Shown: positions 1-64,000 of the stretch, one piece after another
Layout of the letters: every line of letters begins with the position of its first letter
How positions within the stretch are numbered: position 1 is the stretch's first letter
NCBI RefSeq assembly: GCF_009931435.1
Contig: NZ_CP043414.1
DNA length: 64,000 bases
Origin: Escherichia coli
GTDB lineage: Bacteria; Pseudomonadota; Gammaproteobacteria; Enterobacterales; Enterobacteriaceae
Direction: 5' to 3' (one strand)
The notes under the pieces: generated by a model
The model's input: only the letters and a program-made list of their open reading frames with translations
Databases searched by the model: none
What the model was told of the DNA's origin: nothing
Translations under genes and position numbers: made by a program

Positions 1-2
1 TT

Positions 3-161
3 AAATATCGTAACAAATGGTACGTTCTGGATGTAGGCGGGAACAATCTTAGGGTTATTGCCTACATAAACTTTGTTAATAAGCGGTTCTTTGTGAAGCA
101 CATAACGAATCATGCCGAGTATGACAAACTGACACGTTACTACAGAGAGAACAGAGAATGA
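3..161 (+). CDS. HigB-family (RelE-fold) mRNA-interferase toxin, C-terminal 52 codons; 5' end lies outside the window
   Basis: Frame ending in TGA at 159-161 translates to ...NKWYVLDVGGNNLRVIAYINFVNKRFFVKHITNHAEYDKL..., matching the VGGNxLRV...H.EYD pattern I recall for E. coli HigB (YgjN). Stop overlaps the start of the downstream HTH gene by 4 nt (ATGA). Confidence 0.6.
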   Translation, partial: KYRNKWYVLDVGGNNLRVIAYINFVNKRFFVKHITNHAEYDKLTRYYRENRE

Positions 162-577
162 CTGCTAATGCTGCACGCGCTGTTAAAGCAACAAGAGAAC
201 TGGTCAATGCAGTCCCCTTTCTGGGAGGCAGTGACTCAGAAGATGATTATCGTGAAGCACTGGAACTGGTCGAATATTTGATTGAAGAAGATGACACCAA
301 TCCACTTATCGACTTTCTGGCGAGCCGCATTGCAGAGTATGAAAACAACCACGAAAAGTTTGCAGAGTTCGACAAAGCCGTTGCTGCAATGCCGGTTGGC
401 GTGGCGTTACTTCGCACGTTGATTGATCAACATAATCTGACCTATGCGGATTTGAAGAACGAAATCGGCTCTAAATCCCTGGTCAGTCAGATTTTGTCTG
501 GACAAAGATCCCTGACGATATCCCACATTAAGGCACTTTCAGCCCGATTTGGCGTTAAGCCGGAATGGTTTCTTTGA
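158..577 (+). CDS. HigA-family antitoxin (HTH-XRE DNA-binding protein)
   Basis: 139-aa ORF from the track; its C-terminal half (EIGSKSLVSQILSGQRSLTISHIKALSARFG) resembles the HTH of E. coli HigA (YgjM). Toxin-first gene order is typical of higBA. Confidence 0.7.
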   Translation: MTANAARAVKATRELVNAVPFLGGSDSEDDYREALELVEYLIEEDDTNPLIDFLASRIAEYENNHEKFAEFDKAVAAMPVGVALLRTLIDQHNLTYADLKNEIGSKSLVSQILSGQRSLTISHIKALSARFGVKPEWFL

Positions 578-599
578 TTTTGACTGATGCCAAACGCCA

Positions 600-690
600 G
601 ATTGCCCGATGCGCTGCGCTTATCGGGCCTACATGTCGCACGAACTATGTAGGCCGGATAAGGCGTTCACGCCGCATCCGGCACGTTTGC
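600..690. repeat. REP/BIME-type palindromic element
   Basis: GC-rich imperfect palindromes (gcctacatgtcgcacgaactatgtaggccggataaggcgttcacgccgcatccggc) typical of E. coli REP units, between higA-like gene and ascB. Confidence 0.55.
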
Positions 691-3581
<2,891 letters not shown>

Positions 3582-3666
3582 CGGATTTTATCCTGTTATC
3601 AGTAGGGTAGAGGTAGTTGTTATCAGTCGACGTGACGGGAAATTGCCGATGCTGAAACGGAATTAA

Positions 3667-3754
3667 GAAACCGGTTTCACAAAATCATGAATAGTTGATA
3701 CTGATTAAGCAAGAGAGTTAATTGCTCATTTTTTATATTTGTGAAACCGGTCAC
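3667..3754. promoter_or_regulatory. Divergent ascF/ascG control region with two GalR/LacI-type operator-like palindromes
   Basis: Perfect palindrome GAAACCGGTTTC at 3667-3678 and related GTGAAACCGGTCAC at 3741-3754, in the intergenic region between divergent ascF and ascG. AscG is a LacI/GalR-family repressor. Confidence 0.35.
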
Positions 3755-3837
3755 CTGAATATTTTTCCCGCTGCTTGCGCAAGGACAATCAGCCAACGGT
3801 GCAGTACACTGCGTTGATTGCGTGTAAAGGGATGAAA

Positions 3838-4851
3838 ATGATGACGACGATGCTGGAAGTGGCGAAGCGCGCCGGGGTTTCAAAAGCGACCGTTTCCCGC
3901 GTGCTTTCAGGTAATGGCTACGTCAGCCAGGAAACTAAAGATCGCGTGTTTCAGGCGGTGGAAGAGAGCGGCTACCGCCCAAATTTGCTGGCGCGCAATC
4001 TGTCAGCGAAGAGTACCCAGACGCTGGGGCTGGTAGTGACCAACACGCTTTACCACGGCATTTATTTTAGTGAATTACTGTTTCATACCGCGAGAATGGC
4101 GGAAGAGAAAGGGCGTCAGCTGCTATTGGCAGATGGCAAACATAGCGCCGAAGAAGAACGCCAGGCGATTCAGTATCTACTGGATCTGCGCTGCGACGCC
4201 ATTATGATTTACCCGCGCTTTTTAAGCGTGGATGAGATTGATGACATCATTGATGCACACAATCAGCCGATAATGGTGCTCAATCGCCGCCTGCGCAAAA
4301 ACAGTAGCCATAGCGTCTGGTGCGATCATAAACAGACCAGCTTTAACGCCGTGGCAGAGTTGATAAACGCCGGACATCAGGAGATTGCTTTCCTTACCGG
4401 TTCGATGGATTCCCCCACCAGCATTGAACGCCTTGCCGGATATAAAGACGCGCTGGCGCAGCATGGTATTGCACTCAATGAAAAACTTATCGCTAACGGT
4501 AAATGGACGCCTGCCAGCGGGGCCGAAGGGGTAGAAACGTTGCTCGAACGTGGGGCTAAATTTAGCGCGTTAGTTGCCAGTAACGACGATATGGCGATAG
4601 GTGCGATGAAAGCGTTGCATGACCGTGGTGTAGCGGTGCCGGAGCAAGTATCGGTTATTGGATTTGATGATATCGCAATTGCCCCCTACACCGTTCCGGC
4701 GCTCTCCAGCGTAAAAATTCCGGTGACTGAGATGATTCAGGAAATAATTGGGCGGCTGATATTTATGCTCGATGGTGGTGCTTACACACCGCCGAAAACC
4801 TTCAGCGGAAAACTAATCCGCCGCGACTCACTCATTGCTCTTTCGCGATAA
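3838..4851 (+). CDS. ascG: LacI/GalR-family transcriptional repressor of the asc operon
   Basis: Track ORF 3775-4851 (TTG at 3775). K-12-like N-terminus MTTMLEVAKRAGVSKATVSRVL begins at 3838/3841; AAGGG Shine-Dalgarno 7 nt upstream of 3838. HTH plus periplasmic-binding-like fold. Confidence 0.88.
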   Translation: MMTTMLEVAKRAGVSKATVSRVLSGNGYVSQETKDRVFQAVEESGYRPNLLARNLSAKSTQTLGLVVTNTLYHGIYFSELLFHTARMAEEKGRQLLLADGKHSAEEERQAIQYLLDLRCDAIMIYPRFLSVDEIDDIIDAHNQPIMVLNRRLRKNSSHSVWCDHKQTSFNAVAELINAGHQEIAFLTGSMDSPTSIERLAGYKDALAQHGIALNEKLIANGKWTPASGAEGVETLLERGAKFSALVASNDDMAIGAMKALHDRGVAVPEQVSVIGFDDIAIAPYTVPALSSVKIPVTEMIQEIIGRLIFMLDGGAYTPPKTFSGKLIRRDSLIALSR

Positions 4852-4999
4852 ACATTGTCATCACATGTCATCGTCACTAGTGTCGATGACATCGTTTTTT
4901 CTGCACTGCAGAATTTAATTTCTTTAAATAACAATCAATTAAAAGTTGGCATGATTTGTGAATGTATCGGCGCATTAACTGTCATTGCTGGAGAATTTG

Positions 5000-5527
5000 A
5001 TGAACCGTTTCATCATTGCTGACGCAAGTAAATGTATTGGTTGTCGTACCTGTGAAGTGGCGTGCGTGGTTTCTCATCAGGAGAATCAGGACTGTGCATC
5101 GCTGACCCCGGAAACTTTTTTACCGCGAATCCATGTCATTAAAGGTGTGAACATTTCCACGGCGACAGTCTGCCGTCAGTGTGAAGATGCACCGTGCGCT
5201 AATGTCTGCCCGAATGGTGCTATCAGCCGTGATAAAGGGTTTGTTCATGTCATGCAGGAACGTTGCATTGGTTGCAAAACCTGCGTTGTGGCTTGCCCGT
5301 ATGGTGCGATGGAAGTGGTAGTGCGTCCGGTGATTCGCAACAGCGGCGCAGGGCTTAACGTACGCGCTGACAAAGCCGAAGCTAATAAATGCGACCTCTG
5401 TAACCATCGTGAAGACGGCCCGGCCTGTATGGCTGCTTGCCCGACCCATGCGCTGATTTGTGTCGATCGTAATAAACTTGAACAACTGAGCGCAGAAAAA
5501 CGCCGCCGCACGGCGCTGATGTTCTAA
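5000..5527 (+). CDS. hydN: Fe-S electron-transfer protein (4Fe-4S ferredoxin-type) involved in formate hydrogenlyase maturation
   Basis: Track ORF from TTG at 4985; ATG at 5000 gives [22 protein letters not shown]..., 175 aa, with multiple CxxCxxCxxxCP motifs. GGAG SD upstream. Confidence 0.9.
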
Positions 5528-5679
5528 AAATCTTACAGAACTGTTCTGGCATCAAAGGAATTCCCGGAAATATTCGTAGAATACGGAGCAGGCGGTATCG
5601 CCAACCTGTGACTACCGGATGCGACGCGGTCGTGTCCGGCTGGGCGGGTTACGCAATTCATGATGGCGGGAATAACTCA

Positions 5680-7932
5680 ATGGCAAAAAACACATCTTGC
5701 GGTGTCCAACTGCGTATTCGTGGCAAAGTGCAGGGCGTCGGTTTTCGTCCCTTTGTCTGGCAACTGGCACAGCAATTAAATCTTCACGGCGATGTCTGTA
5801 ATGACGGCGATGGCGTAGAAGTCCGGCTGCTGGAAGACCCGGAAACGTTTCTTGTTCAATTGCATCAGGATTGTCCGCCGCTGGCGCGTATTGATAGCGT
5901 CGAATGTGAGCCGTTTATCTGGATGCAGCCGCCCACTGAGTTCATCATCCGCCAGAGTGCGGGCGGCGTCATGAATACGCAAATTGTTCCCGATGCCGCT
6001 ACTTGTCCTGCCTGTCTTGCCGAAATGAATACCCCAGGCGAACGGCGTTATCGTTATCCGTTTATCAACTGTACCCATTGCGGCCCGCGTTTCACCATTA
6101 TTCGCGCGATGCCTTACGACCGTCCATTTACCGTGATGGCGGCGTTTCCGCTATGTCCGGCCTGCGATAAAGAATATCGCGACCCGCTCGATCGTCGCTT
6201 CCACGCCCAGCCGGTGGCCTGCCCGGAGTGTGGCCCACATCTTGAATGGCTAAGTCATGGTGAACATGCGAAACAAGAGGCGGCATTACAGGCGGCTATC
6301 GCTCAGTTAAAAATGGGCAACATTGTCGCTATCAAAGGGATTGGCGGATTTCATCTCGCCTGCGATGCGCTTAACAGTAACGCGGTGGCGACACTACGGG
6401 CGCGCAAACATCGCCCGGCGAAACCGCTGGCGGTTATGTTGCCAACGGCAGAAGGTTTGCCCGACGCTGCCCGACAGTTGCTCACCACGCCCGCCGCGCC
6501 GATTGTACTGGTGGATAAAATATATGTTCCGGAACTTTGTGACGATATCGCCCCTGGCCTTAACGAAGTCGGGGTGATGTTGCCTGCGAATCCGCTCCAG
6601 CATTTGCTGTTACAGGAACTGCAATGCCCGCTGGTGATGACCTCCGGCAACCTGAGCGGTAAACCACCGGCTATCAGCAACGAACAGGCGCTGGAGGACT
6701 TGCAGGACATTGCCGACGGATTCTTGATTCATAACCGCGACATCGTGCAGCGGATGGATGATTCAGTGGTGCGCGAAAGTGGCGAAATGTTGCGCCGCTC
6801 GCGGGGGTATGTACCGGATGCGCTGGCTTTGCCTCCGGGCTTTAAAAATATTCCTCCTGTGCTGTGTCTCGGTGCGGATCTGAAAAATACCTTCTGTCTG
6901 GTGCGTGGTGAACAGGCGGTGTTGAGTCAACATTTGGGCGATTTAAGTGACGATGGCATTCAGATGCAGTGGCGCGAAGCGTTGCGTCTGATGCAAAACA
7001 TCTACGATTTTACCCCGCAATACGTTGTGCATGACGCGCATCCGGGCTATGTCTCCAGCCAGTGGGCGCGCGAAATGAATCTGCCGACGCAAACGGTGCT
7101 GCATCATCATGCTCATGCGGCGGCGTGTCTGGCAGAACATCACTGGCCGCTGGATGGCAGTGATGTCATTGCTTTGACGCTCGACGGTATTGGTATGGGC
7201 GAAAACGGCGCTTTATGGGGCGGCGAGTGCTTGCGGGTGAACTATCGCGAATGCCAGCACCTGGGTGGCTTGCCTGCGGTGGCGCTTCCGGGGGGCGATC
7301 TTGCGGCAAAGCAGCCGTGGCGAAACCTGCTGGCGCAGTGCCTGCGCTTTGTGCCGGAGTGGCAGAATTACCCTGAAGCGGCAAGTGTGCAACAGCAAAA
7401 CTGGAGCGTGCTGGCGCGGGCCATTGAGCGTGGAATTAACGCGCCGCTGGCGTCATCGTGCGGGCGTTTGTTCGATGCTGTGGCGGCGGCACTGGGCTGT
7501 GCGCCAGCCACGTTAAGTTATGAAGGTGAAGCGGCTTGCGCCCTCGAGGCGCTGGCGGCTTCATGCCAGGGAGTGACGCATCCGGTGACGATGCCGCTGG
7601 TGGACAATCAGCTGGATCTCGCCACTTTCTGGCAGCAGTGGCTGAACTGGCAGGCACCGGTTAATCAACGCGCGTGGGCATTTCATGATGCGCTGGCGCA
7701 GGGTTTTGCCGCGTTGATGCGTGAGCAGGCCACGATGCGTGGTATCACTACGCTGGTATTTAGCGGCGGGGTTATTCATAACCGTTTGCTGCGTGCACGT
7801 CTGGCGCATTATCTTGCTGATTTTACGTTGCTCTTCCCGCAGAGTTTACCTGCGGGGGATGGCGGGTTGTCTCTGGGGCAGGGGGTTATTGCTGCGGCCC
7901 GTTGGGTGGCGGGTGAAGCCCAGAACGGATAA
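5680..7932 (+). CDS. hypF: Carbamoyltransferase hydrogenase maturation factor
   Basis: Track ORF 5608-7932; ATG at 5680 gives [25 protein letters not shown]..., 750 aa. Acylphosphatase-like N-terminus, two CxxC zinc-finger pairs, YrdC and Kae1-like domains. Confidence 0.93.
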
Positions 7933-24774: not shown

Positions 24775-24867
24775 GGTGAGGTGGCCGAGAGGCTGAAGGC
24801 GCTCCCCTGCTAAGGGAGTATGCGGTCAAAAGCTGCATCCGGGGTTCGAATCCCCGCCTCACCGCCA
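24775..24867 (+). tRNA. serV: tRNA-Ser (anticodon GCU)
   Basis: 93-nt sequence GGTGAGGTGGCCGAGAGGCUGAAGG...CCGCCUCACCGCCA with long variable arm and anticodon loop CCUGCUAAG. Confidence 0.93.
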
Positions 24868-24870
24868 TTT

Positions 24871-24947
24871 GCATCCGTAGCTCAGCTGGATAGAGTACTC
24901 GGCTACGAACCGAGCGGTCGGAGGTTCGAATCCTCCCGGATGCACCA
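24871..24947 (+). tRNA. argV: tRNA-Arg (anticodon ACG)
   Basis: GCATCCGTAGCTCAGCTGGATAGAGTACTCGGCTACGAACCGAGCGGTCGGAGGTTCGAATCCTCCCGGATGCACCA; 3 nt after serV. Confidence 0.93.
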
Positions 24948-25082
24948 TATTCTACGAAATCTTCAGCAATGAAGGTGTCGAAGAGGTGGCGGTACTAACC
25001 GCAAGCACCAGGGAGGATAACGTTGCTTTAGCAACGGCCCGAAGGGCGAGCCGTAAGGCGAGTAATCCTCCCGGATGCACCA
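24948..25082 (+). repeat. Spacer repeat unit ending in a tRNA-Arg 3'-terminal fragment (aatcctcccggatgcacca)
   Basis: About 135-nt unit after argV; its last 19 nt duplicate the T-arm/acceptor 3' end plus CCA of tRNA-Arg without the rest of the tRNA. Confidence 0.6.
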
Positions 25083-25146
25083 TCTCTTACTTGATACGGC
25101 TTTAGTAGCGGTATCAAAAAATCTGCAGTAAAGTAAGTTTCCCGAT

Positions 25147-25223
25147 GCATCCGTAGCTCAGCTGGATAGAGTACTCGGCTACGAACCGAGCGGTCGGAGG
25201 TTCGAATCCTCCCGGATGCACCA
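25147..25223 (+). tRNA. argY: tRNA-Arg (anticodon ACG)
   Basis: Identical 77-nt tRNA-Arg copy; spacing to neighbours (276 and 140 nt) matches the argVYZQ arrangement as I recall it. Confidence 0.9.
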
Positions 25224-25286
25224 TCTCTTACTTGATATGGCTTTAGTAGCGATATCAATATCAGCAGTAAAGTAAGTTCTCCCGAT

Positions 25287-25363
25287 GCATCCGTAGCTCA
25301 GCTGGATAGAGTACTCGGCTACGAACCGAGCGGTCGGAGGTTCGAATCCTCCCGGATGCACCA
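25287..25363 (+). tRNA. argZ: tRNA-Arg (anticodon ACG)
   Basis: Identical 77-nt tRNA-Arg copy. Confidence 0.9.
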
Positions 25364-25498
25364 TATTCTCCGAAATCTTCAGCAATGAAGATATCGAAGA
25401 GGTAGCGGAATTAACCGCAGGCACCAGGAAGGATAACGTTGCTTTAGCAACGGCCCGAAGGGCGAGCCGCAAGGCGAGTAATCCTCCCGGATGCACCA
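25364..25498 (+). repeat. Spacer repeat unit ending in a tRNA-Arg 3'-terminal fragment
   Basis: Near-identical copy of the 24948-25082 unit after argZ. Confidence 0.6.
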
Positions 25499-25561
25499 TC
25501 TCTTATTTGATATGGCTTTAGTAGCGGTATCAATATCAGCAGTAAAGTAATTTCTCCCGAT

Positions 25562-25638
25562 GCATCCGTAGCTCAGCTGGATAGAGTACTCGGCTACGAA
25601 CCGAGCGGTCGGAGGTTCGAATCCTCCCGGATGCACCA
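25562..25638 (+). tRNA. argQ: tRNA-Arg (anticodon ACG)
   Basis: Identical 77-nt tRNA-Arg copy; last gene of the operon. Confidence 0.9.
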
Positions 25639-29248: not shown

Positions 29249-30361
29249 TTACCTGTCAGTCACCCGATATTCCACGCTATGTGCTTCATCAGGTTGAGGA
29301 ACTTCCAGCCTTGAGGCCATCCGCATCACGACCGCTTCAGGAACGGCATACTCGCGCCTGGCATTTTGCTGCTTCCATTGCGCCCACGGTACTTCCAGAT
29401 AAACGATTTTTACTCGTGCACCGTAAGCCGTAAACAGACTGATGAGCTGGCTACGCAACTGGCGGGTAATGTTCGTTGCATTCCAGATGAACGGCTTCTT
29501 CTGGCGTAAAAAAACGCGCGCTTCTTCTTTTGCCTGTTGCACAATACGCCCGGTGGCGGTTTTGTCGTCCGGACTGGCATTGATTCGCCGCCGCATATCA
29601 TCAAGGCTGATAACGTTCACTCTCTGGCACTGTTCACTGATAAAGCGATCTTTGCCCATACCCGGTAAACCACACAGCAAAATAACCTCAAAAGATTCAG
29701 CCTCCCAGGGAACAAAATCAGGAGAACTTTGTTCATGGGTCAGGTAATGCCAGCGTGCGGAATCCGAAGCGAATGAACGCACTTTTCCCCAGCATTGTTG
29801 CTCCTGGCAAAATAGCTTGAACAGATCGATGCGTTCCAGCATTGATTGCTGATCATGACAATGGCGACCAAGCAGATCGGCACGAGCAAGCAAAGCGAGC
29901 AGACGCGTGTCGATACGCATTGCAGCCGTGAGCAGCAAACGCTCCGGTTCCGGACGTTCCAGTAACCATAGCGGTAACCCATGCAGACGCACCAGTGCAA
30001 CAATTTGCTCGCGTAGCACGAACGGTGTCGGGATATCGCGCCATAAAATTTGTCGGGCCGTCAATTCACCCCGACGAGCATGACCAGGGGACTGAATACG
30101 TCCGTTTTCCTGCACGGTAGTACTGCGCTTTTCAACGTCATGCAATAACGCCGCCGCCCATAAAATTTCCTGCTGCTGAGCGGGGAGTTGCTGAAACTCA
30201 GCCATCGCAACGAGTGCGTTCAGCACCATTTCAGTATGCACACCAACGTCGCCTTCACCATGATGCTCCGGGTCTTGCGGCGTGTTATGCATATCCTCAA
30301 CCCAGCTAAAACGCTGGCGTAGCGTCGACCAGCGTTTGTCGTCGGTAAGTTGCCAAATCAT
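29249..30361 (-). CDS. HD-domain phosphoesterase fused to P-loop NTPase (polynucleotide-kinase-like); predicted RNA/DNA end-healing enzyme
   Basis: 370-aa ORF. N-terminal HD signature: [16 protein letters not shown] (res 31-46), AALLHDVEK (res 70-78), ARADLLGR (res 159-166). C-terminal Walker A GLPGMGKD (res 231-238) and Walker B-like NVISLDD (res 249-255). Start overlaps the stop of the upstream ligase-like ORF by 4 nt. Confidence 0.65.
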
Positions 30362-31065
30362 GACTGTTCTCCATAAGCGAACTCATGGGCCATCCGCGCC
30401 CGTCGCCAGTGGCGTTTCCAGTGCTCGGTGGTTTTGACATGATTTTTGCGTACATACTTGAAGACGTTATGCGAAAAGTCAGCGACGGAAAACGCATCAC
30501 TATTCCGGCTGACAATGCCTTCCAGCGTACAGGGTTGCCCGGTTTGCGTATCCCAGGGATCGAACGCGCCGCGCGCATTGGTCAGCGCCAGAAAATCACG
30601 TTGCCAGCTTTTTTCATCATTCCCCGGCTGCGGGCCGGAGATTTCGGGAACGCAGGGGAAATCAAACAGAGCGGCGTAAAACTGCACCTCTTCCCAGCTC
30701 AGCCACATATCCTGGCAGCGAACGGCAAACAGATAAAAATCCTGCTCCAGGGCGCGATATTCAATCGAATGAACGGCATAAAGATTTTCACCAAACAACT
30801 CCAGATCGCCGAGATCGTTTTTCAGCGATTGCCAGCGTTGGCGAATTTTATAGGTCCATGCCGATTCCGTTGGCGCGGCATGGGAACGGGCAAACACGCC
30901 GAAGCGATTAAGACAGTTATTTTCGCCGTCGAGTTTTTCAGTATGTACCAACTGCGAAATTGCCTGCATATCTTGCCAGTAACTGGCGTTAATGCGGTCA
31001 TCGCTGGTGGTGCCAGGGGAGAAGGGATAATGCCAGGTTCTCCCGTATTTACGTTGGATAATCAT
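30358..31065 (-). CDS. Rnl2-like ATP-dependent RNA ligase (nucleotidyltransferase domain only)
   Basis: 235-aa ORF with candidate covalent-nucleotidyltransferase motifs in canonical order and spacing: I KLDG (K44), III LFGE (90-93), IV EGIV (182-185), V KYVRK (203-207). First gene of a 2-gene operon. Confidence 0.6.
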
Positions 31066-44762: not shown

Positions 44763-44970
44763 GATTCGTATTTCCGTTTAAAATGAAGATACGGCGCGAT
44801 GATACGCGTCGGGTTGTCTCTCTGTTGATACAGAGATACTAGATGTAGTTGAAAAAAGATTCAACCATACAAGATATGGGAATTTTAGATTGATTACACC
44901 ACCGATGAATGGCTCAACGGGGTAGGGGATTTTGTGTTTTTTTGCCGGGCGATTGCCCGGCATCAGGAAG

Positions 44971-45402
44971 TTACATCCGCATGGAAACGGCCAGGCGGTT
45001 AAAGCAATTCATCAGCCCGATGGCAAATGTTAAGTCGCTGATTTCTGCTGCGCTGAAATGCTCAAGCAAAGGCTGATAAACGTCGTCTTCCGCATGGGTT
45101 CGGGCAATATCGGTCACCGATTCCGCCCATGCCAGCGCCGCCCGCTCGCGATCGTCAAAATGATGGCTTACGCGCCAGCCTGCCAGGGCATCCAGCTTAT
45201 GCTGCGGCACACCGGATTTGCGTAATGCTTTGCTGTGCATCTCCAGACAAAATGCGCAACCATTGATTTGCGAGACGCGCAAATAAACTAACTCCATCAG
45301 CGTAGTTTCCAGCGTGCTATTTTCCAGCGCCGTTTTGGCCTGCACCAGCGCGTTATATACCGTTGGGCTAAGTTCGTAGTAAGGCTGACGTAATGTAGTC
45401 AT
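44971..45402 (-). CDS. AhpD-like / carboxymuconolactone decarboxylase family protein
   Basis: 143-aa ORF with CxxCxxxH signature (NGCAFCLEMH); strong AGGAG SD; divergent from a MocR-type regulator. I do not recall a gene here in K-12. Confidence 0.7.
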   Translation of the reverse strand: MTTLRQPYYELSPTVYNALVQAKTALENSTLETTLMELVYLRVSQINGCAFCLEMHSKALRKSGVPQHKLDALAGWRVSHHFDDRERAALAWAESVTDIARTHAEDDVYQPLLEHFSAAEISDLTFAIGLMNCFNRLAVSMRM

Positions 45403-45489
45403 ACAGTTTCTCCTCTTATTAACGCCCGCAATGTAGCACTATAATGGACTGCTAAAGAGAGCCATAAATTACCTAAAAAAGCAGACCAT

Positions 45490-46824
45490 ATGCCGCGCTA
45501 TCAGGATATCGCCCGTCAGTTAAAAACGGCTATTGAGCAAGGGGAACTGAAACCCGGCGCAAGGCTACCTTCAAGTCGTACCTGGTCGCAGGAACTGGGG
45601 GTGTCTCGATCCACTGTCGAAAATGCGTATGCTGAGCTGGTGGCGCAAGGATGGCTGATCAGGCGGGGACAGGCTGGCACATTTGTCAGTGAGCAGATAT
45701 ATCCGCAACAATCTACTGTACAAGTTGTGTCTTTTGCCGGTGAAAGTCAGCAACCGTTGCCATTTCAAATGGGATTACCCGCACTCGATCTCTTTCCGCG
45801 AGAGCTGTGGGCGCGGGTGATGGGGCGTCGCCTTCGTACCCAGACGCGCTTTGATTTGGCGTTAGGCGATGTCTGCGGTGAGGCGGCGTTGCGTGAGGCA
45901 ATAGTTGATTACTTACGCGTTTCACGTGGGATTGATTGTCAGCCAGAGCAGGTCTTTATCACTCACGGTTATGCGGCCTCAATGGCTTTAATTCTGCACG
46001 CGCTGGCGAAACCGGGAAACGGGATGTGGATGGAAGATCCCGGCTTTCCACTGATTCGCCCGATTGTCACTCGCCACGGTGTGGAAATTTTGCCTGTGCC
46101 GGTTGATGACAACGGACTGGATATCACAAGCGGAATACAAAATTATCCTGATGCGTGTTTTGCCCTGATAACACCAGCACACCAAAGCCCGCTGGGTGTG
46201 GCGCTCTCTTTAGCGCGCAGGCATCAGATACTGGAATGGGCAGAGCGTAGTCAGGCATGGATTATTGAAGATGATTATGACAGTGAGTTTCGCTATCACG
46301 GTAAGCCGTTACCGGCGTTAAAAAGTCTCGATGCACCGCAGCGGGTAATTTATGCCGGAACATTCAGCAAAGCACTATTTCCTGCATTGCGCTGTGCGTG
46401 GCTGGTGGTGCCGGTGAAGCAAATTGCACAATTCCGCCACCAGGCGTCACTGGCTCCATGTGCGGTACCTGTTCTATGGCAGAACACACTGGCAGACTTT
46501 CTTCGCGAGGGGCATTTCTGGCGGCATCTGAAGAAAATGCGTCAGCATTATGCTCAACGTCGGCAATGGATTGAGCAAGCGTTGACGCAGCAGGGATTTC
46601 AGGTTGTGCCGCAGAAAGGTGGTATCCAGATGGTGATCAGAATGATGGGCGATGATATTGCCCATGCGCGTAAAGCCAATGCTGCAGGCCTTGCGGTGCA
46701 GGCACTTAGCGACTGGCGTATCCGCTCAAGTGGGGAAGGTGGATTACTTCTCTCGTTTACCAATATCGTTAACGAAGGTATGGCGCGACAGGTAGCACAA
46801 CAATTACGTAAAGCCTTAAGCTAA
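45490..46824 (+). CDS. MocR/GabR-type regulator (GntR wHTH fused to PLP-dependent aminotransferase-like domain)
   Basis: 444-aa ORF; N-terminal GntR HTH (YQDIARQLKTAIEQGELKPGARLPSSRTWSQELGVSRSTVENAYAELVAQGWL), C-terminal class-I aminotransferase-like region with candidate PLP lysine (FSKALFP). Confidence 0.75.
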   Translation: MPRYQDIARQLKTAIEQGELKPGARLPSSRTWSQELGVSRSTVENAYAELVAQGWLIRRGQAGTFVSEQIYPQQSTVQVVSFAGESQQPLPFQMGLPALDLFPRELWARVMGRRLRTQTRFDLALGDVCGEAALREAIVDYLRVSRGIDCQPEQVFITHGYAASMALILHALAKPGNGMWMEDPGFPLIRPIVTRHGVEILPVPVDDNGLDITSGIQNYPDACFALITPAHQSPLGVALSLARRHQILEWAERSQAWIIEDDYDSEFRYHGKPLPALKSLDAPQRVIYAGTFSKALFPALRCAWLVVPVKQIAQFRHQASLAPCAVPVLWQNTLADFLREGHFWRHLKKMRQHYAQRRQWIEQALTQQGFQVVPQKGGIQMVIRMMGDDIAHARKANAAGLAVQALSDWRIRSSGEGGLLLSFTNIVNEGMARQVAQQLRKALS

Positions 46825-53194: not shown

Positions 53195-53420
53195 AGAGCG
53201 GCTCCGCCTTATCCGGCCGACATAGATTTATTCCTGTTCACGTACAGATTGTCGGATGCGGCGTAAACGCCTTATCCGACTTGGATTCTCGTAGGCCGGA
53301 CAAGACGCGAAGCGTCGCCTCCGGCATGGTGCGCCGAATGTCGGATGCGGCGTAAACGCCTTATCCGACCTACATTTCCGTAGGCCGGACAAGACGCAAA
53401 GCGTCGCCTCCGGCATGGGT
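53195..53420. repeat. Cluster of REP/BIME elements including two tandem ~80-bp units
   Basis: gtcggatgcggcgtaaacgccttatccgac...gtaggccggacaagacgc(g/a)aagcgtcgcctccggcatgg occurs twice (about 53251-53328 and 53340-53417), preceded by a third partial copy. Confidence 0.6.
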
Positions 53421-61604: not shown

Positions 61605-61680
61605 GGCCCTTTAGCTCAGTGGTTAGAGCAGACGACTCATAATCGCCTGGTCGCTGGTTCAAGTCCAGCAAGGGCCACCA
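61605..61680 (+). tRNA. ileY: tRNA-Ile2 (anticodon CAU, lysidine-modified type)
   Basis: GGCCCTTTAGCTCAGTGGTTAGAGCAGACGACTCATAATCGCCTGGTCGCTGGTTCAAGTCCAGCAAGGGCCACCA; cloverleaf with anticodon loop CTCATAA; adjacent to ygaQ as in K-12. Confidence 0.9.
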
Positions 61681-62431
61681 AATCAGCATTCTTGTATCAG
61701 GAAGAGTTAAGGGTACAAGGGGTACTCGATGGCGGTCTATATTTCACGACTAACGCCATTTCAAGGAAGAAGTGTGGTGGGTGGTTTCGAATGAGGGCTG
61801 GTGTTTTGGTACGTGGCACGCCACTGCAATGTATTTATCCATCAGTACTCATTCAAAAGTACCTGGAAAAAATGCCCGCTATGCCAAGCGGGCAAATTGC
61901 TTACATGTGGAATTAAGTAATTAACGATAAAGCCAGAGTATTATCATTTATTATACCCCTTCATTTAATCAGGTTAATTACTCAAATCACTGAACTATTC
62001 TCTGTTCGCTCACTTATGCTGAGTGAGTACCACGACCAATGTATGTAGAACAATGCCGTAGAGTAAGGATGAAATGTCTCTGCCACGCCTTAAACATCTA
62101 CTACTGACTAGAACCGCCGTCGCATGCAGAAGAGTCTTGTGAGCGTTACAGGAGTCTGGCTTTGCTCATTAATCAACGCTATTTAGATATAAATTTCTAA
62201 TACTCGAAAAACGATTTTCACAAATAAATTATAACGGATGGTTTTTATCATACAGCGAAATAACCTTTTGTTTATTAAATTTAACATTCCTGTGCTAAAT
62301 TAATTAAAAGTACCATGTATAGCATATGAATCTGTTAATGCCAGCAATTGTCTCAAATGAGCGATTTTTTATAGTGACTAACAATAATAACATTAAAAAT
62401 AGTCATGTAGACATTAACTGAGGAAAAGACA

Positions 62432-63886
62432 ATGTTAGTTAGTAAAAGCAACGAAATTAACACTAGCACATTTATAAATAGTGGAAATTGTAATGAAAGA
62501 AAATCTTCTAAATCCATGGAGTTACTAGCTTATAGTATTATAAAATTAATTTGTAAAGAAGCTGCCTCAGGGACGTATAACGGTGCTCTTGAAATTTTAC
62601 AAAAAATGATGTCTGAATGTAAATATCATGAAGGCAATGCTTTTGTCATTATGGGAGCCGGAGAACAATTAAAACGTATTAAATATGATGCTAATGAAAA
62701 TAAATTAAAAGTATACAACGTACACTTTGATAATAATCAAGAGTTAGTTGCTGATGGTGAGCCTGACGTAGTATTTTTAAAAAAAACGGTGTGGGAAGAC
62801 CTTCTCGTTAAACTAAATCTGGAGAACAAAGAAAATGCGGTTTCTGAAATTAACCTGTCATCTAATAAAAATAATGTTGATCAGTTTATTGAATGCGCTA
62901 AGAGAAATGAACAGACCCTATTCGACAATATAAGAAAAAGTGATTTTCATGTTGCTTCACTTCAGCCAGGTAGAACGCGTAGTGTTATTTCAGAAACGCC
63001 GCCAAATGACTGTATGGAATCACCTAATTTATATGAAAACCACACAGATAAGGTTTCAACTGTAACTAAAAATTCTCAGCAAGTTAAAGGTCACTATGGA
63101 GATAAGTTGAAAGAAATGCAGTTGTTCCTCAACCAGATGAGCAATGCACTTCAACAGGATTCATCTTTGTTAGAGTCAAAGGAACACACCATAGATATTC
63201 AAGAAAAAACGAATAAGTTTGTGCAGCATTTTCAGCGGGTATTATTTGATAAAAATGGAAGGTCATCAGAGTTTCTACTTAATTTTTATGAGTGTTGCTA
63301 TAAGTTTTTACCAAGAGCGCAGCCTCAAGATAAAATCGATAGCTATAATTCAGCACTGCAAGCTTTTTCCATCTTTTGTTCATCTACGTTCACACATAAT
63401 AATGTAGGGTTTAATTTCAAATTATTTCCAGAAGTCAAACTGTCTGGAGGAGATCTTGAAACGGTATTCAAATACAAAAATGGCAATTTTGTCTGGGAGA
63501 TAGCCAGAATTAAAATTACTCTCCCAAAAGAAGAGGGTGGTTTATATAATTTAGGTGGATTGGACTTTAAGGGGTGCTTCTTTTCTGGACAGAACTTCAG
63601 TAACTATGATATTAAATATGTGAACTGGGGGACGTCATTGTTTGATGTTGATACTCCGTGTATTTTTAATACGCCTGCTAACAATGAGAGTTATGAAAAA
63701 TCATTAAAGCCTGTGAGCGAAAACGGTTTAAATGGAGTCTTATCTGATCGTAATAAAAAAATAAAAATGATCACGGGCGTGGCACCATTCGATGGTATTT
63801 CATCTATGGATGATGACTTTGATGATAGTTCCTCTGAGGATGAGCCCGTTGAGAATAGTCCTGTTGTGACTAGGCCCCTTGTATAA
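62432..63886 (+). CDS. Hypothetical protein, AT-rich (about 30% GC by eye), probable horizontally acquired island gene
   Basis: 484-aa ORF 750 bp downstream of the tRNA-Ile 3' end. Contains about six tandem 5-residue repeats with hydrophobic centre (GLDFK GCFFS GQNFS NYDIK YVNWG TSLFD) and an acidic Ser/Asp/Glu-rich C-terminal tail. Confidence 0.55.
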   Translation: MLVSKSNEINTSTFINSGNCNERKSSKSMELLAYSIIKLICKEAASGTYNGALEILQKMMSECKYHEGNAFVIMGAGEQLKRIKYDANENKLKVYNVHFDNNQELVADGEPDVVFLKKTVWEDLLVKLNLENKENAVSEINLSSNKNNVDQFIECAKRNEQTLFDNIRKSDFHVASLQPGRTRSVISETPPNDCMESPNLYENHTDKVSTVTKNSQQVKGHYGDKLKEMQLFLNQMSNALQQDSSLLESKEHTIDIQEKTNKFVQHFQRVLFDKNGRSSEFLLNFYECCYKFLPRAQPQDKIDSYNSALQAFSIFCSSTFTHNNVGFNFKLFPEVKLSGGDLETVFKYKNGNFVWEIARIKITLPKEEGGLYNLGGLDFKGCFFSGQNFSNYDIKYVNWGTSLFDVDTPCIFNTPANNESYEKSLKPVSENGLNGVLSDRNKKIKMITGVAPFDGISSMDDDFDDSSSEDEPVENSPVVTRPLV

Positions 63887-64000
63887 AGTTCTAAAAGCAG
63901 TTTTCAATGATAAATAAATGGCGATTTTTACAAAGAGATAATAACGTAGATTGAAATAATATGTATTATTGATTGAGTAAACGGGATTATTCTTCACACT

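Follow-up and report, generated by a model that had tools for sequence, protein, structure and literature searches.

The left edge of the window—the whole 64,000-nucleotide stretch of Escherichia coli DNA analyzed here—in all likelihood belongs to a chromosomal Type II toxin-antitoxin (TA) operon of the PF09907 HigB_toxin/K-12-type HigA family, a second, paralogous 'higBA' that resides between hycI and ascB in a minority of E. coli. The assignment of the gene pair to the HigB_toxin/HigA family is firm and, judging from its sequence, the hycI-ascB operon very probably functions as a TA system. Its features and those of its immediate surroundings are as follows ('L001' coordinates refer to the locus in E. 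coli 2020CK-00188):

Window 1–161, plus strand, in frame from base 3: codons 52–103 of the toxin gene, its 3′ end, i.e. the last 52 residues (translation)
Window 158–577, plus strand: the antitoxin gene, 139 aa (ORF list; RefSeq WP_000126291.1)
Window 583–587, no strand: right copy of the direct repeat ACTGA, border of the 900-bp higBA segment (BLAST breakpoints and junction sequences)
Window ~600–685, no strand: two inverted REP units, BIME-like, between the convergent genes higA and ascB (inverted repeats)
Window 691–2115 (or 2127), minus strand: ascB (6-phospho-beta-glucosidase), the convergent right-hand neighbor (ORF and annotation of an identical genome)
L001 4932–5687, between hycI and higB and ~300–1070 bp to the left of position 1: a gene for a 251-aa protein with a signal-peptide-like N-terminus, MCAFLFCLVLPAQA
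L001 5683–5687, no strand: left copy of the direct repeat ACTGA, which includes the stop codon of the 251-aa gene (junction sequences)

Frame 3 of the plus strand stays open between base 3 and the TGA stop at 159–161, and its translation within the window, up to that stop, reads KYRNKWYVLDVGGNNLRVIAYINFVNKRFFVKHITNHAEYDKLTRYYRENRE; the strings that led the initial annotation to call this C-terminus HigB-like are indeed present in this frame. Codons 1–51 lie outside the window and were read from E. coli 2020CK-00188, a genome 100% identical to the window over positions 1–7426. The full toxin gene there is 312 bp long (L001 5850–6161), begins 151 bp left of the window and encodes 103 aa. It is intact—neither truncated nor frameshifted, outcomes that the initial annotation had left to leftward extension to decide—and its product, WP_032184987.1, already carries the RefSeq label 'type II toxin-antitoxin system HigB family toxin', correctly so. 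Because the first 51 codons come from another genome, we infer, rather than observe, that the toxin is intact in the window's own strain. The window itself keeps 161 bp of the gene, compared with the 33–39 bp that survive in two toxin-deletion alleles described below.

Profile searches of the kind the initial annotation had proposed match the full toxin to HigB_toxin, PF09907 (4.6e-23; model positions 4–73 of 74), and to no second Pfam family at E ≤ 10, PF05015 included; NCBIfam has no curated model that matches it. In the PDB, the HigB chains of E. coli K-12 and Shigella (5IFG, 6KML and 5YCL) align with residues 1–100 at ~1e-22. An AlphaFold model built with 15 homologues as input (pLDDT 88) comprises, in order, three helices, four strands and a helix at 88–101, the RelE-superfamily fold with a C-terminal helix like that of K-12 HigB, upon which it superimposes (6KML/5IFG) with a TM score of 0.90–0.94 and an rmsd of 1.1 Å. 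The next-best fold matches after HigB are Cami1, YoeB and RelE, all ribosome-dependent toxins. In an alignment of homologues, the residues that are invariant in the family are intact in the window's toxin.

The toxin gene comes first, and its stop codon and the start codon of the antitoxin gene share the ATGA at 158–161, a 4-nt overlap; the toxin-first arrangement is the same in all of the genomes and genera examined. That the second protein is a 139-aa HTH protein, as had been noticed from the letters, is borne out by the ORFs and by a match to HTH_3 (7.9e-9) at residues 85–138, its C-terminal part. Residues 9–138 align with HigA in the PDB (5IFG_B/5YCL_A) at 2e-35, and identity to K-12 HigA is 46% over 130 residues. 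The N-terminal domain resembles the toxin-binding and dimerization domain of HigA, and the HTH comes last, the layout of K-12-type HigA. NCBIfam returned nothing for the antitoxin beyond one meaningless sub-threshold match.

The HigB-HigA pair of K-12 and Shigella (YgjN/YgjM) thus resembles the window's pair in Pfam family, toxin fold, antitoxin domain order and 4-nt gene overlap. The toxins share Y53, K56, R68, H88, E90, Y91 and D92, but are only 39% identical overall, and the K-12 genes are situated elsewhere, between fadH and rlmG. In K-12, ascB and hycI have no gene between them, so the view that the pair is an extra TA module, absent from K-12 at this place, holds. The HigB-HigA pair of Proteus vulgaris Rts1 has the same toxin-first order and RelE-superfamily fold, but its toxin belongs to PF05015 (HigB-like), the family to which the window's toxin finds no match, and the antitoxin domain order of the K-12-type family is reversed with respect to Rts1 HigA (PMC7160566). 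Our literature search, which included the RefSeq protein accessions, found no experimental study of the hycI-ascB higBA; papers on the TA repertoire of E. coli describe other HigA/ParE loci, not this pair. On its own, the pair is one further Type II module among the many of E. coli.

By sequence, the closest characterized relative of the pair is SehA/SehB of Salmonella enterica (STM4031/STM4030.S). For SehA we used the S. enterica cluster representative P0124, a protein of 103 aa; its C-terminus AYYRGNKE and N-terminal PFNEAM match the published sehA primers, and a close homologue of P0124 is 40% identical to K-12 HigB, the figure reported for SehA. The window's toxin is the same length, 103 aa, and aligns with it without gaps at 55% identity and 75% positives, which leaves a sequence divergence of 45%. 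The operons agree in being toxin-first, with an antitoxin of ~140 aa and a C-terminal HTH; identity between the window's antitoxin and a SehB-like gene is 46–59% across two blocks. A Citrobacter-like sehAB locus was located by means of a SehB fragment; sehB is frameshifted there, probably through assembly errors, and related half-palindromes lie upstream of the Citrobacter sehA-like gene. The Salmonella-type locus sits between fdhE/esterase and yiiD-dtd, the window's module between hycI and ascB.

SehA matters here for what has been reported of its action. Toxicity requires each of Y53, D61, H88, Y91, K93, T95, Y97 and Y98, and the protein is said to have no endoribonuclease activity and to inhibit RNase III instead (PMC12817084). 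All eight of these toxicity-critical residues occur at the same positions in the window's toxin; at position 68, in contrast, SehA has lysine where the window's toxin and K-12 HigB have arginine. K-12 HigB keeps only four of the eight, with N61, F93, V97 and H98 at the others.

What the toxin does can be sketched by analogy. The promoter described below would drive a bicistronic transcript of the overlapping genes higB and higA. If K-12 HigBA and Salmonella SehAB are reliable guides, the antitoxin would dimerize and bind the toxin through its N-terminal domain, and repress the operon by way of its C-terminal HTH at a palindrome in the promoter; on depletion of the antitoxin by Lon-type proteolysis, the freed 103-aa RelE-fold toxin would shut down translation, and growth would stop. 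In K-12, HigB is toxic and cleaves only mRNA that is being translated, HigA neutralizes the toxin and autoregulates the operon, and induction depends on Lon (PMC2814082).

The initial annotation also likened the toxin's C-terminus to HigB-type mRNA interferases. Membership of the HigB family stands; the mechanism is not safe, the nearest relative being the reported RNase III inhibitor, and 'mRNA interferase' is one of two live mechanisms for the window's toxin. That the module works exactly like K-12 HigBA, its toxin entering the ribosomal A site and cleaving translated mRNA as a RelE-type interferase, is quite possible, although we would sooner bet against it than on it. The common Pfam family, the nearly identical fold, the seven residues shared with K-12 HigB, the restriction of K-12 HigB cleavage to translated mRNA and the ribosome-dependent character of Cami1, YoeB and RelE all speak for it. 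The identities do not—39% to K-12 HigB versus 55% to SehA, a protein reported to lack endoribonuclease activity—and neither do the four SehA-critical positions that are changed in K-12 HigB and kept here. [quoted passage not shown] Being the closest E. coli relative of SehA, the toxin is a natural case for asking whether inhibition of RNase III extends throughout this sub-clade of PF09907 or is peculiar to Salmonella.

The promoter predicted for the operon, TTGTGA-17-TATAGT, lies ~75–105 bp upstream of the toxin start, outside the window. Scans for promoter and terminator consensus sequences did no better overall on this DNA than on shuffles of it, and of the predicted promoters we used only the one that coincides with a conserved palindrome. 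This palindrome, the 17-bp GTTTACATATTGTGAAC, overlaps the predicted -35 of what is the sole promoter-like site of the region. Among the best 80 of 245 loci, a set that includes neither Salmonella LT2 nor E. coli, the 16 closest loci from other genera all have the palindrome GTTYACATWWTGTRAAC (with at most one mismatch) upstream of the toxin gene; the toxins of these loci, from Leclercia, Phytobacter, Mangrovibacter, Yokenella, Pantoea, Mixta, Kluyvera, Citrobacter and Photorhabdus among others, are 65–79% identical. The other 1.42 Mb of the same loci contain no match to GTTYACATWWTGTRAAC, and this putative operator motif occurs nowhere else in the 64-kb window. Eleven of the 16 loci have two copies, typically near -73 and -35, on either side of a TATAGT-like -10. 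The E. coli alleles are different: all five that we examined have one copy of GTTTACATATTGTGAAC, at -104 to -109, and the proximal operator is cut down to a half-site. In the hyp-linked E. coli alleles an extra CTTAAAA places the Shine-Dalgarno sequence AAGGA ~15 nt from the ATG, a distance that could mean weak expression of the toxin or an attenuated module.

The promoter of K-12 higBA has the same layout, and in both operons a 17-bp palindrome that fits GTTnnCAnnnTGnnAAC, the putative operator, lies beside the -10. The core of the K-12 operator is GTTGCCAATCTGGCAAC, however, and the two differ as TACA and GCCA. Because the cores differ, we infer that cross-regulation between the two paralogous HigA repressors is unlikely, and that the two circuits are probably insulated from one another. 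From the conserved 17-bp palindrome and its divergence from the K-12 higBA operator comes a specific prediction of what separates the two paralogous HigA repressors. The Pantoea and Mixta loci (L016, L018 and L019) display a single GTTTACATWWTGTGAAC site, ~60–100 bp upstream of the toxin gene, and, farther upstream, an ATTGCCA-containing sequence that resembles the core of the K-12 higBA operator. There is a hint here of operator swapping between sub-clades.

In E. coli 2020CK-00188, the order to the left of the window is hycI, the 251-aa gene, an intergenic region of 162 bp and the toxin gene. The 251-aa protein has no match in Pfam, NCBIfam, PADLOC or PHROGs. The higBA segment proper is 900 bp long, made up of promoter, higB and higA, and is bounded by the two copies of ACTGA; a repeat of 4–5 bp fits insertion and deletion alike. 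Other strains depart from this arrangement in various ways:

K-12: 31 bp stand in place of L001 4911–6583
LS45: the 900-bp higBA segment is precisely absent and the 251-aa gene is kept; the sequence joins exactly at ACTGA, as it does in K-12
Ec40743: L001 5711–6122 is deleted, and with it the promoter and most of higB
ST131: L001 5096–6128 is deleted, which joins the 5′ portion of the 251-aa gene to the final 33 bp of higB
LH85-a and E2348/69: higBA is present without the 251-aa gene, behind a different leader in which the palindrome is still found

The locus occurs in at least six states of decay, the scar in K-12 among them. What remains of the 251-aa gene in K-12 is its first bases and its last 32 bp, and since the ends of the gene are there, the K-12 site is a deletion derivative and not a virgin site; most of the gene was apparently lost by deletion between short GGGATGT repeats. 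The deletions of Ec40743 and ST131 both end 30–35 bp before the antitoxin start, and so spare the antitoxin gene and its ribosome-binding site, although the two could be nested rather than independent. An active toxin, harmful on its own, would be expected to leave just this asymmetry: toxin removed, antitoxin kept together with its ribosome-binding site.

Across 5426 complete E. coli genomes, the antitoxin gene is found in 2508 and the toxin gene in 1091, about a fifth; 747 genomes have the 251-aa gene, higB and higA together. (Full-length higB of the K-12 type is present in 2821.) The antitoxin occurs without the toxin in ~1417 genomes, ~26% of E. coli, so that the toxin is missing from 57% of antitoxin carriers. 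Throughout the 5426 genomes both genes of the module are always single-copy and chromosomal, never on plasmids. In all 1091 genomes with a toxin match, 80% or more of the gene is covered, none of the toxin copies listed is flagged as a pseudogene, and an annotated antitoxin adjoins the toxin in each of 30 toxin genes sampled. The antitoxin-only protein of ST131 and Ec40743, WP_000126294.1, is the very antitoxin that accompanies the toxin in the full modules of LH85-a and O145:H28. Where codons differ from one E. coli allele to another, the changes are mostly synonymous: synonymous:nonsynonymous counts run from 1:0 to 7:3 for pairs of toxin genes and up to 16:0 for pairs of antitoxin genes. The divergence of the alleles (95–100%), their fixed position and their presence in several lineages, including the B2 strains E2348/69, ATCC 25922 and ST131, speak for a lengthy stay in E. 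coli and for loss on repeated occasions; apparently an old resident, the module is disappearing piece by piece, the toxin first. The graded series at hycI-ascB—full module, toxin deleted, upstream gene deleted, K-12 scar—together with some 1400 antitoxin-only genomes, constitutes a body of data on how chromosomal TA systems are lost.

Some of these observations might suggest that the module is itself a decaying, attenuated remnant, its toxin weak or weakly expressed, and the pair persisting by linkage and drift. The lost proximal operator, the long leader with its distant Shine-Dalgarno sequence, the six or more decay states and the absence of the toxin from 57% of antitoxin carriers could all be read that way. 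We find this improbable, nevertheless: differences in both genes are mainly synonymous, the family-invariant and SehA-critical residues are intact without exception, the toxin matches all span 80% or more of the gene and the listed copies are free of pseudogene flags, and the deletions spare the antitoxin and its ribosome-binding site. A functional TA operon remains the reading that we favor.

Three strains of the B2 phylogroup, ST131, E2348/69 and ATCC 25922 (loci L004, L092 and L093), show change on the other side of the module as well. To the right of higA they have a gene for a DUF4259 protein of ~145 aa in place of ascB-ascF-ascG and, in E2348/69, an IS200C transposase gene beside it. With DUF4259 substituted for ascBFG, the whole of the hycI-hydN interval has therefore to be regarded as hypervariable.

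A different employment for the pair is suggested by defense-system searches. PADLOC matches the toxin to PD-Lambda-2_A (1.9e-15) and the antitoxin to PD-Lambda-2_B (2.1e-14); PHROG families match both proteins, and a Salmonella pair 68% identical to this one sits in the early/immunity regions of lambdoid prophages beside Cro-like genes, so members of the sub-clade travel on phages. In the PD-lambda-2 system of Vassallo et al. (2022), component A resembles HigB_toxin, and B resembles HigA in its N-terminal part. From this it might be supposed that the main role of the window's module is anti-phage defense by abortive infection, in the manner of the HigB-containing PD-lambda-2 or of the prophage-borne copies. 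The resemblance is partial. In PD-lambda-2 it is B, fused to a peptidase, that is the toxic component; A neutralizes it, and a third gene is needed (PMC9519451). The window's antitoxin has no peptidase domain and covers only positions 9–115 of the 402-position PD-Lambda-2_B profile, and the third component, which is related to a P4 antitoxin, is absent here: what comes next, after the REP pair, is ascB on the other strand. The surroundings, furthermore, are housekeeping operons rather than a prophage or defense island. A principal role in phage defense consequently strikes us as quite unlikely for this conventional-looking, two-gene TA operon.

A more adventurous proposal joins the toxin to the fate of the antitoxin. 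The E. coli toxin might be an RNase III inhibitor of the SehA type, and the intact lone antitoxin of ~26% of genomes, ST131 included, might be kept for a function of its own, for instance as anti-addiction immunity against incoming prophage-borne SehA/HigB-like toxins, such as those of the Salmonella lambdoid prophages, or as a stand-alone repressor. As a whole we rate this combination as rather unlikely.

The initial annotation had also described the module as flanked by a REP element. A REP pair does lie at its right-hand border, with inverted repeats at 619–634/647–662 and 653–666/669–682; the REP core occurs six times in the window versus 0.07 expected, and the REP-pair part of our query finds matches throughout E. 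coli genomes, at a median of 37 places in each. K-12 has the pair too, and aligns with the window from 584 onward. The REP pair therefore belongs to the flanking chromosome rather than to the module. Beyond ascB come ascF and then ascG. Over the 56 kb that follow position 7426, identity to E. coli 2020CK-00188 is ~98.7%. The window therefore comes from a different, mosaic strain, and the drop in identity from window 7427 onward indicates that a boundary of the recombination mosaic lies near hydN/hypF.

The rest of the window contains a few other items. Between emrB and luxS/MicA, at 29249–31065 on the minus strand, two ORFs overlap, one of 235 aa labeled 'RNA ligase family protein' in the near-identical genome and one of 370 aa labeled 'ATP-binding protein'; neither has a PADLOC match, and together they resemble a small accessory insertion of two genes. 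Going by the annotation of that near-identical genome, genes of the PLP-dependent aminotransferase and carboxymuconolactone decarboxylase families lie at ~44967–46820, between ygaM and nrdH. At the far end, 61605–64000, a tRNA gene (Ile in the near-identical genome) precedes a 484-aa DUF5507 ORF (62432–63886), again with no PADLOC match; just past this ORF, the related genome has an ATPase and a fragment of a recombinase, and the region resembles the border of an island linked to a tRNA gene. Ordinary in appearance are one tRNA-Ser and four tRNA-Arg genes upstream of csrA (24775–25635), and a match to the REP-derived Rfam family naRNA4 at 53294–53370.
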